The notes: generated by a model not told the origin, from the sequence alone. Shown: positions 8,292 to 9,394, numbered from the stretch's first letter. The stretch: 26,453 nucleotides of DNA from a virus (IMGVR_UViG_3300005528_000049), one strand, 5' to 3'. Made by a program: numbers and translations.

Positions 8292-8954
8292 ATGACAACC
8301 CCAACAAATTATACTGTTACAGATGGTTTAGCTCAAGTAACTTTACTTGAAAAAAGAATTTTAGCAGCTATTAAAATTGCAATCTTTGATGTTATTACAT
8401 ATGAAAAAGTTGTTTCTCCAAAGCTAGAAGCTGAGATTAAACAAGCTGAAAAGGATATTAAAGGCGGCTATCAAAGTTTAACTGCTTTAATTGAGACAAG
8501 ACATGCTATTAAGGCTGCAATTATTAAAGTTAATGCTGGCATTCCTCCAGGTACAGTATTAATTAATACTGTTACTATTCTTGGTAAAGAATATACACCT
8601 GCTGAATTAATTGAGAGAAAGAAGAGTTTAGTATTAGAAAAGAATTTACTTCATAAGATGAAAGAAGCTAATCATCAAACTGAGAAAGCTCTTGAATTGA
8701 AAAAGGTAGAATATGCAGATAAATTAGAAAGACATATTGCAAATTCAGTAGCCGCTCAAGGTGCAAAAAGAGATGAAGCTTTTGTTGATAAATGCACAAG
8801 AGAATTTAGTCCTGCTAATCAGCCTCTTAGACTTGATCCTTTAGGTTTAACTAAAGAAATAGCTAAATATGAAGAGTATATTGATACTTTTGAAAGTGAA
8901 ATTGATAGAGCTTTATCTAAGTTTAATGCAACTACTTTATTAGAAGTGGTATAA
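8292..8954 (+). CDS. Coiled-coil protein resembling the DIP1984/DUF6847-like family
   Basis: TV..GLAQ..LLEKRI N-terminus, T.AELIERKK middle and FE.EID.ALS.FNATT C-terminus. Family recalled from memory, not searched. Confidence 0.5.
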   Translation: MTTPTNYTVTDGLAQVTLLEKRILAAIKIAIFDVITYEKVVSPKLEAEIKQAEKDIKGGYQSLTALIETRHAIKAAIIKVNAGIPPGTVLINTVTILGKEYTPAELIERKKSLVLEKNLLHKMKEANHQTEKALELKKVEYADKLERHIANSVAAQGAKRDEAFVDKCTREFSPANQPLRLDPLGLTKEIAKYEEYIDTFESEIDRALSKFNATTLLEVV

Positions 8955-8980
8955 TATATATATATATATATATATATATA
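8955..8980. repeat. (TA)13 microsatellite
   Basis: Direct reading; follows TGGTATAAT (8947-8955), which overlaps the stop codon. Confidence 0.9.
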
Positions 8981-9033
8981 AGTTAAATTAGAATTAGGAA
9001 TATTAAATACCTAATTGTCTAAATGTCCAGATC

Positions 9034-9341
9034 TGTTCATATAGTGAAACTTATTATTTTGAAGCAGTTGGCCCTGCTGTCTCAGGGCTATTATAAATTG
9101 TAGGATTATACAACCAACTTGATTGGAGCTTGCCGACATAGGTGAGGATCAATTACCCAACTCAAAGTTTAAAGGTTAAAGTTTATAAGCTCATAAGTTC
9201 AAAATTCAAACAAGTATTACTCAGGCAGTATATACACTCAAAGTTTATAAGTTTAAATCTTAAAGCTATTTGAAATCCAGAATCAAGGTTAGTGGTGTCT
9301 TTAAAGCAACCCTAAGTTATCCTCTGGCTGCTATATGAACA
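9034..9341 (+). ncRNA. Candidate ~310-nt structured ncRNA with internal AAAGYYY repeats
   Basis: 11-bp closing helix tgttcatatag (9034-9044) / ctatatgaaca (9331-9341); internal helices agttgg/ccaact, gccctg/cagggc and ttgta/tacaa; GC-richer than the flanks; no ORF; followed by a terminator. Confidence 0.7.
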
Positions 9342-9353
9342 TTTTATTTATAA

Positions 9354-9394
9354 TTAAAAGCTGTTGTTAAATAAATAACAACAGCTTTTAATTT
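9354..9394 (+). terminator. Intrinsic terminator
   Basis: ttaaaagctgttgtt / aacaacagcttttaa inverted repeat, followed by (TA)9 at 9394-9411. Confidence 0.8.

Follow-up and report, generated by a model that had tools for sequence, protein, structure and literature searches.

Type III antitoxins are RNAs with tandem repeats of about 34-36 nucleotides (nt) located ahead of the gene for an endoribonuclease toxin. In the trp leader of Bacillus, 11 (G/U)AG repeats are read by TRAP as a ring-shaped multimer, and in the hut leader HutP reads two blocks of three UAG that are 4 nt apart and thus have a 7-nt period. The locus described here is part of a 26,453-nt stretch of viral DNA, IMGVR_UViG_3300005528_000049 (the window, from here on, is this whole stretch), in which a gene coding for a helical protein of 220 amino acids (aa) is followed by a structured RNA that includes two blocks of 7-8-nt repeats. 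An earlier note, generated by a model from the sequence alone, had proposed that gene and RNA form a pair. The analysis reported here leaves us nearly certain that the RNA at 9034-9342 is real and that it is a member of a widespread phage family that had not been catalogued.

A structured RNA downstream of the 220-aa gene

The plus strand at 9034-9342 folds much better than shuffled sequences (z = -4.95), none of the 100 shuffles being as good. The architecture of the RNA (Table 1) includes every feature listed in the earlier note. The helix that joins both ends of the RNA, P1, which had been described as 11 base pairs (bp) between 9034-9044 and 9331-9341, is present and slightly longer. It encloses the hairpins P2, P3 and P4, and the block written as atcc..ggtt..aacc..cctctggctg corresponds to the 3' hairpin domain. 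The 7-8-nt repeats, which are NUYAAAG-like heptads, were also recovered; when the tract was compared with shuffles, its self-identity was raised at lag 7 (z = 3.4) and at lag 8 (z = 2.8).

Seven relatives of the protein were found in a set of 5.8 billion proteins. Their contigs are syntenic with the window and include an RF2-like gene, the 220-aa gene, a gap of 400-790 nt, small genes and a gene for RlaP. The gap carries the same RNA in each of the four freshwater relatives whose contigs extend far enough downstream. RNAalifold, applied to four distinct sequences, predicted 86 pairs, 17 of which stay paired through changes on both sides. These compensated pairs are spread over P1 (compensatory changes at four positions within the freshwater group), P2, P3, P4, the small central hairpin and the 3' domain, and they support the claim that a structured RNA follows the gene. 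The heptad tract has a different pattern of conservation. Its sequence is kept among the freshwater relatives, but the pairing between the two blocks proposed by RNAalifold is uncompensated, and about 5 of its approximately 20 pairs break in one sequence or another, while just one of the 20 is doubly changed. An open reading frame (ORF) of 43 aa at 9142-9273 is broken in the relatives L003 and L004, where CAA is replaced by TAA in the alignment. The RNA stretch is therefore non-coding, and the coding reading of 9142-9273 was rejected because this ORF is not conserved.

A comparison of the window with its relative L001 (8292-9342 versus L001:6001-6984) showed that the RNA is 99% identical and the downstream genes 98% identical, while identity is 88% in the RF2-like gene and falls to 74% at the nucleotide level (68% at the amino acid level) in the 220-aa gene. 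The drop from 98-99% to 74% therefore locates a mosaic breakpoint, produced by recombination, between the gene and the RNA.

As the earlier note had pointed out, an extended -10-like element, TGGTATAAT, overlaps the stop codon of the upstream gene. It was read from the sequence, was not flagged by a -35/-10 promoter scan and may be the promoter of the RNA gene. In L001, a TGTATAAT stands 8 nt ahead of the first helix. In the place of the terminator noted after the RNA there is an AU-rich hairpin of 13 bp, followed by U residues. It was not flagged by a strict terminator scan, and a contig from an RNA run, X20, passes through it (to 9382 plus 25 letters). Relatives of the window RNA have clearer terminators or an abutting tRNA.

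The RNA stretch was found in freshwater and lake metagenomes of many studies and in six metatranscriptome runs. Four RNA runs from four studies, in all of which the stretch is assembled, were compared with positions 7400-10400 of the window. The word depth, which is one figure per contig and no measure of expression, was 334 and 152 for contigs confined to the RNA stretch (X4, 8991-9343, and X20, 9052-9382), whereas contigs of these runs that cover the neighbouring genes had 3-7. This contrast hints at a discrete and abundant RNA. Run X17 had a contig over the RNA stretch only, with no flanking gene, and was not used as evidence, since missing cover proves nothing.

No related loci were found in IMG/VR when either the protein or its alignment served as the query, and exact-pattern scans of IMG/VR, the JGI metagenomes and GTDB genomes with the conserved RNA motifs gave no true match; the candidates L010, L130 and L131, as well as the 14-mer matches from L011 onwards, were discarded as chance. 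The Rfam scan recommended in the earlier note was run against Rfam 15 and no family matched, the RNA region of the window having chance matches only (E 0.4-6, far below gathering). The tmRNA model did not match the window RNA at E<=10, nor did the YrlA model match 8900-9450 at the same threshold, and ARAGORN found no tRNA or tmRNA in the RNA stretch and two tRNAs elsewhere in the window.

The RNA family in cultured phages

A blastn search with the window region found no match among cultured phages, and the link to them was reached through the protein only. A tblastn search with the window protein identified 620 cultured-phage records, all below 60% identity, and with a T5-type protein as the query there were 743 records in all. 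In Pseudomonas phage phiPsa374, 400 nt without annotation and with the same layout come after the homologous gene. Each homologue opened is followed by 360-640 nt that contain no credible gene and have this layout, and in 17 of the 17 loci opened, which represent about nine lineages, the RNA is located directly 3' of the homologous gene, with its start 5-61 nt past the stop codon. The members belong to T5-like phages (HdH2, oldekolle and T5), Vibrio T5-like phages (pVp-1, KIT04 and Pylo), Vequintavirinae (4MG, Mydo, GAP31 and 19-1-2), Pseudomonas phages (phiPsa374 and Y1-MI, with Otagovirus listed among the lineages), Bacillus phages (BCP8-2 and BC01), the Erwinia jumbo phage MadMel, Lactococcus phage PMBT69 and Clostridioides phage phiCD211. 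Among T5-like genomes, the full RNA was present in 438 records and the T5-type protein (at least 80% identity) in 438 records. The RNA thus follows the homologous genes, and the idea that these would lack a similar downstream RNA was not borne out. The proposal that gene and RNA are a pair is reinforced by these counts (17/17 cultured loci, 4/4 freshwater relatives and, in T5-like phages, 438 records each for the RNA and for the protein).

The RNAs are 293-445 nt long and share one layout. The 5' part consists of a long P1, GAA(A) after its 5' strand, P2, an AUUAUA-like box and variable hairpins. In the 3' part, a periodic tract rich in AAAG/UUCAA is followed by AAAUCC, a P6 of 5-6 bp, GGCUG and the 3' strand of P1. 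Ungapped P1 helices of 13-21 pairs are found in 13 of the 16 members, the other three having bulged helices; the P1 sequences are unrelated between lineages and rich in G-U pairs. The most conserved part of the family is AAAUCC-stem...stem-GGCUG, in which P6 encloses 40-70 nt and its middle pairs covary (CCAGA/UCUGG, CCUAGA/UCUAGG, CCACUG/UAGUGG and CUUGGG/CCCGAG). Five lineages show covariation in a pseudoknot that joins the loop of P2 to the strand immediately ahead of this hairpin (ACCUCG/CGAGGU, ACUCCC/GGGAGU, GCCUCU/GGAGGU, CUUCC/GGAAG and ACUUCUG/CAGAAGU); in the window lineage this pairing is weak (4 bp) or absent. A quick search for a further pairing, of the AUUAUA box with the 3' domain, revealed no consistent partner. 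The window RNA has all the defining features of this T5.085-associated family, namely P1, P2 and its box, the heptads, AAAUCC-P6...GGCUG and the position after the gene.

Self-identity at lag 7 or lag 8 of the tract that precedes AAAUCC was raised in 16 of 16 members tested, with a mean z of 3.5 at lag 7 and 2.6 at lag 14. Strict counts of the word YAAAG showed a modest enrichment (z -0.3 to 4.4), and the periodicity test is the better measure of the heptads. For 13 of the 16 members, the complementary strand gives a poorer fold than the sense strand. At the nucleotide level, blastn showed that the 4MG RNA is about 72% similar to the T5-like RNAs over the heptad tract and the 3' domain.

None of the blastn rows matching the RNA had an RNA gene annotated at that place, and the RNA was unannotated in every cultured-phage record opened. 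In T5 (NC_005859.1), T5.085 occupies 43,505-44,143 (complement) and the unannotated RNA, 97.5% identical to that of HdH2, occupies 43,139-43,497 (complement). T5 also has an annotated 719-nt rnaX, a "stable RNA with unknown functions" (NC_005859 40,848-41,566; L148:349-1067), which adjoins tRNA-Arg and is a different element from the heptad RNA. Small "hypothetical protein" genes annotated inside the RNA of Proteus phage Mydo (L142:1515-1649) and Escherichia phage 19-1-2 (L145:1470-1589) are probably false gene calls.

The module is always located in or beside tRNA clusters. In Vequintavirinae (L134:2529-2532, L142, L144 and L145), 1-8 nt separate the end of the P1 3' strand from a tRNA gene, which in 4MG, Mydo and GAP31 is that of tRNA-Thr. 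Since the tRNA abuts the RNA, the 3' end of the latter is probably set in these phages by tRNA 5' processing and not by a terminator.

Two lineages have tRNA-like features inside the RNA. When the loci of eight relatives were compared with Rfam, the only match within the RNA was a partial YrlA module, in MadMel (L137:2106-2169), which matched YrlA positions 23-87 with 44.5 bits and E 5.6e-7, the gathering score being 69. This module, a circularly permuted tRNA-like structure (T arm, closed acceptor stem, D arm), takes the place of P3. The RNAs of HdH2 (L133 ~2105-2121) and oldekolle contain a hairpin, CAGC-CUUUUAA-GCUG, whose 7-nt loop CUUUUAA is the anticodon loop of E. coli tRNA-Lys(UUU) and was not seen in other lineages. 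The loop could be a decoy or could have arisen by chance, an event of roughly 1-2% by estimate.

The adjacent protein and the setting of the pair

The 220-aa protein matched phrog_1491 with E 3.1e-42, residues 5-219 aligning to profile positions 3-209 of 211. Its homologues in a library of 1.84 billion proteins comprise 1289 clusters at 50% identity (E<=1e-3). An AlphaFold2 model built with 81 relatives (predicted local distance difference test score, pLDDT, 95.7) consists of long helices in a bundle plus a small beta cap. Fold searches (PDB by Foldseek, a wide VIA-align search and AFDB clusters) returned generic helical-bundle rows or unnamed relatives, with Z<=9.2 and template modelling (TM) scores <=0.5, and a sequence search of PDB gave nothing below E 0.03. 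The product had been described in the earlier note as DIP1984/DUF6847-like, an assignment that was not upheld: the protein had no match in Pfam or NCBIfam, nor did the 81 relatives at E<=0.01, and the only trace is a DUF6847 (PF20935) label on 10-15% of the members of neighbouring Atlas clusters. The prediction of a three-copy complex (scores 0.00, 0.46 and 0.00 versus a mark of 0.42) weighs neither way.

In many records the homologues are labelled "tail fiber protein". No fibre stood out in the fold searches, and the gene sits among early genes and tRNAs, not among tail genes; the label is an inherited annotation and probably a mislabel. T5.085 has been listed as phrog_1491 with annotation quality "Unknown" (PMC11879866, supplement file 8), and its knock-down was scored "Not Fit" in a CRISPRi-ART screen of T5 (PMC11879866, supplement file 16). 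T5.085 is therefore dispensable under laboratory conditions.

The window is phage-like in character, with a G+C content of 28.8%, and the features of the locus and its surroundings are collected in Table 1. The RF2-like product matches profile positions 86-194 of the PCRF domain and the RF-1 domain only, and its relatives were called at 236-241 aa, so that the N-terminal domain seems absent or may sit in another frame. In L008, a relative at 98%, no RF gene was called ahead of the 220-aa gene. The -10-like element is parted from P1 by the insertion of about 80 nt in the window, L008, L009 and partly L004, which is not present in L001, L003 and L007. The (TA)13 tract that opens it is found in the window, L008 and L009 and missing from L001, L003 and L007. 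A short TCTARATGTCCA motif inside the insertion is common to the window and L004. The RNA gene is bracketed by the (TA)13 and (TA)9 tracts.

Table 1. Features of the gene-RNA locus and of its surroundings, numbered from the first nucleotide of the window
Feature	Position	Strand	Remarks
RNA ligase gene	156-1211		
TROVE/DUF2828 "RNA-binding protein" gene	2490-4052		
tRNA-Leu	6334		ARAGORN
tRNA-Glu	6481		ARAGORN
Two DUF2442 genes			Around the locus
RF2-like gene	7468-8286		Just before the 220-aa gene
220-aa helical protein gene	8292-8954	+	PHROG 1491, homologue of T5.085
Extended -10-like element TGGTATAAT	8947-8955	+	Overlaps stop codon 8952-8954; candidate promoter, read from sequence
ORF-free stretch			470 nt after the 220-aa gene, then small genes
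(TA)13 tract	8955-8980		Opens the ~80-nt insertion between gene and RNA
~80-nt insertion	8955-9033		
Structured RNA	9034-9342	+	
P1, 5' strand	9034-9046	+	Pairs with 9329-9341; 13 bp, two innermost wobble
P2 hairpin	9069-9090	+	8 bp, loop CUGUCU; two compensated pairs
Conserved CUAUUAUA box	9088-9095	+	Right after P2
P3 variable hairpin	9098-9113	+	Compensatory changes and length variation in L003, L004, L007
P4 hairpin with internal loop	9119-9155	+	Several compensated pairs
Heptad tract	9161-9272	+	NUYAAAG-like units, period 7-8 nt
Heptad blocks	9161-9214 and 9236-9272	+	Flank small hairpin 9214-9235
3' domain	9273-9330	+	AAAUCC box, P6, ~41-nt hairpin inside P6, GGCUG
P6 stem CCAGA/UCUGG	9277-9281 with 9323-9327	+	Hairpin domain 9277-9327
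GGCUG	9326-9330	+	Runs into P1
P1, 3' strand	9329-9341	+	Closes end-to-end helix
Terminator-like hairpin	9356-9389	+	13-bp AU-rich stem, 8-nt loop, U-rich tail
(TA)9 tract	9394-9411		
RlaP-type nucleotidyltransferase gene	11051-11917		
Group I intron	15518-15817		

Possible roles of the gene-RNA pair and comparison with known systems

In phages of both Pseudomonadota and Bacillota, the RNA strictly adjoins a gene of a single protein family, which speaks for a functional pair. In the model that we propose, the RNA gene produces a stable, abundant, non-coding RNA. The family to which it belongs is carried by large, tRNA-bearing tailed phages, always directly after a PHROG 1491 gene. Transcription would start from the -10 element over the upstream stop codon, result from read-through, or both, and the RNA would end at its own hairpin or, in Vequintavirinae, through processing of the abutting tRNA instead. 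The long helix would clamp both ends of the molecule, and the 5' domain (P2 with the pseudoknot, P3 and P4) and the 3' hairpin domain would flank about ten tandem NUYAAAG heptads. The heptads, conserved as sequence and spacing and not as pairs, could offer a single-stranded platform on which a multimer assembles, the adjacent helical protein being its most likely subunit. The resulting ribonucleoprotein might be used early in infection for a dispensable task in host takeover or counter-defence. Such a role would fit the location among early genes and in tRNA clusters, the presence of tRNA-like arms in two lineages and the fact that T5.085 can be dispensed with in the laboratory. We give about an even chance to the proposal that the RNA works with the adjacent protein and that the heptads are tandem binding sites or a platform, the binding being suggested by synteny. 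A more specific version, in which the T5.085-family protein would multimerise on the approximately ten heptads with one protomer per NUYAAAG and the variable arms would be decoys for tRNA-targeting defence nucleases, is a long shot, and the same is to be said of the decoys that it would assign, a YrlA-like mimic in Erwinia jumbo phages and the tRNA-Lys anticodon-loop hairpin in T5-like phages.

Several observations weigh against this model. The heptad blocks can pair with each other in the window lineage and so may not be single-stranded. One RNA (99% identity between the window and L001) serves rather different proteins (68% at the amino acid level), and the protein is neutral (isoelectric point 6.9), with no known RNA-binding fold in the fold searches. 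In L006, the homologue P0007 (51% identity) is followed directly by a small hydrophobic ORF of membrane type, with no RNA in the 129 nt available (L006:868-996); the contig ends there, so the RNA may be further along or missing. The evidence from the RNA libraries is affected by the (TA)n tracts at 8955-8980 and 9394-9411, which break contigs and read mapping, by the DNA that such libraries may contain and by the several phage genotypes that share the RNA stretch.

Some of these observations are shared with an alternative that we consider possible, if tentative, in which the RNA acts on a host factor as a sponge or decoy for an RNA-binding protein, an RNase or a tRNA-directed enzyme, and the neighbouring gene is connected to it only through joint expression or because it serves another step in the pathway. 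A neutral protein without a recognisable RNA-binding fold, and one RNA that accompanies proteins just 68% identical, agree with such a role, as do the tRNA-like modules in the variable arms (the YrlA-like module of MadMel, E 5.6e-7, and the tRNA-Lys(UUU) loop of T5-like phages), the permanent location of the module in or beside tRNA clusters and the laboratory dispensability of T5.085. However, the hosts span from Gammaproteobacteria to Bacillota and an AT-rich freshwater host, which means that the target would have to be near-universal, and the tight adjacency of gene and RNA across lineages is most simply explained by direct partnership. The short distance between the stop codon and the start of the RNA (5-61 nt), which makes co-transcription possible, would also be compatible with a cis-acting 3' untranslated region that steers the stability or translation of the upstream mRNA. 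This is improbable considering the -10-like element at the stop codon, which in L001 is directly ahead of P1, the much greater depth of the RNA-confined contigs with respect to the gene contigs of the same RNA runs and the recombination breakpoint between gene and RNA. In addition, an RNA of 300-445 nt that contains a pseudoknot and is closed from end to end by a helix goes far beyond what known 3' stabilisers require.

The layout of the locus brings to mind two further explanations. A protein gene that adjoins a repeat-bearing RNA recalls a toxin-antitoxin-like pair of type III style, in which the RNA would neutralise a toxic protein. The analogy with RNA antitoxins, already drawn in the earlier note, was not supported by the comparison, and we consider such a pair very improbable: the units are 7 nt and not about 35 nt, the RNA comes after the gene, the protein is modelled as a helical bundle for which neither a nuclease match nor a nuclease fold was found, and the pair is present in strictly lytic phages such as T5. 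The short direct repeats in an ORF-free island with (TA)n tracts on both sides could be taken instead as the iterons of a replication origin, that is, as a DNA element. This is hardly credible when compensatory changes keep base pairs that are 300 nt apart, when many pairs are G-U (A-C mismatches on the other strand) and the better fold is that of the sense strand for 13 of the 16 members, when the (TA)n tracts are missing from L001, L003 and the cultured phages and when the stretch is prominent in RNA libraries.

T5 and its relatives, the rV5-like phages, the Bacillus SPO1-like phages and the Erwinia jumbo phages are among the best-studied large phages, yet the RNA was unannotated in every record opened and is absent from Rfam 15. 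A literature search found no paper or catalogue entry describing the heptad RNA, although the coverage of the literature was incomplete and this is no proof; the gene-plus-RNA pair is probably an undescribed protein-RNA module. The presence of a conserved RNA with a dedicated protein gene in phages of Gram-negative and Gram-positive bacteria, together with its abundance in lake metatranscriptomes, points to a common step in the handling of the host. That it is invariably found in tRNA clusters hints at a part in RNA or translation biology, or else in counter-defence. The finding would also correct the widespread "tail fiber protein" annotation, and the module can be put to the test directly in T5 and E. 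coli.

Each of the described systems shares some features with the locus. The likeness to ToxIN is limited to a protein gene beside a repeat RNA, and the unit length, the gene order and the protein fold are different. The two blocks of AAG-containing units at 7-8 nt in the window resemble the targets of TRAP and HutP in RNA layout only. Those are cis attenuators in mRNA leaders, read by proteins with beta-rich or alpha/beta folds, whereas the window repeats belong to a stable, closed RNA of trans type that has additional domains, and the candidate partner is a helical bundle; neither TRAP nor HutP was in the fold-search lists for the window protein. In CsrB and RsmZ, too, a short motif occurs many times within a single stable RNA, which titrates a protein multimer. 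However, their motif is GGA in hairpin loops at irregular spacing and the host regulator is encoded elsewhere, while the units of the window are contiguous heptads with a conserved gene next door. GOLLD and ROOL are, like the RNA described here, large, ornate and abundant phage non-coding RNAs that are often found beside tRNA genes, but the window-family RNA does not match their Rfam models, is half their size or less (293-445 nt) and is set apart by its heptad tract and by the dedicated protein gene at its side. The Y RNA (YrlA) of the Ro60/Rsr system has in common with the family a long stem made of the 5' and 3' ends and an optional tRNA-like module, as in MadMel, and the window also encodes a TROVE/DUF2828 protein. 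Nonetheless, the window RNA has no YrlA match at E 10, its partner gene is not TROVE, and a Ro gene was not seen beside the RNA in most of the phages that carry it.

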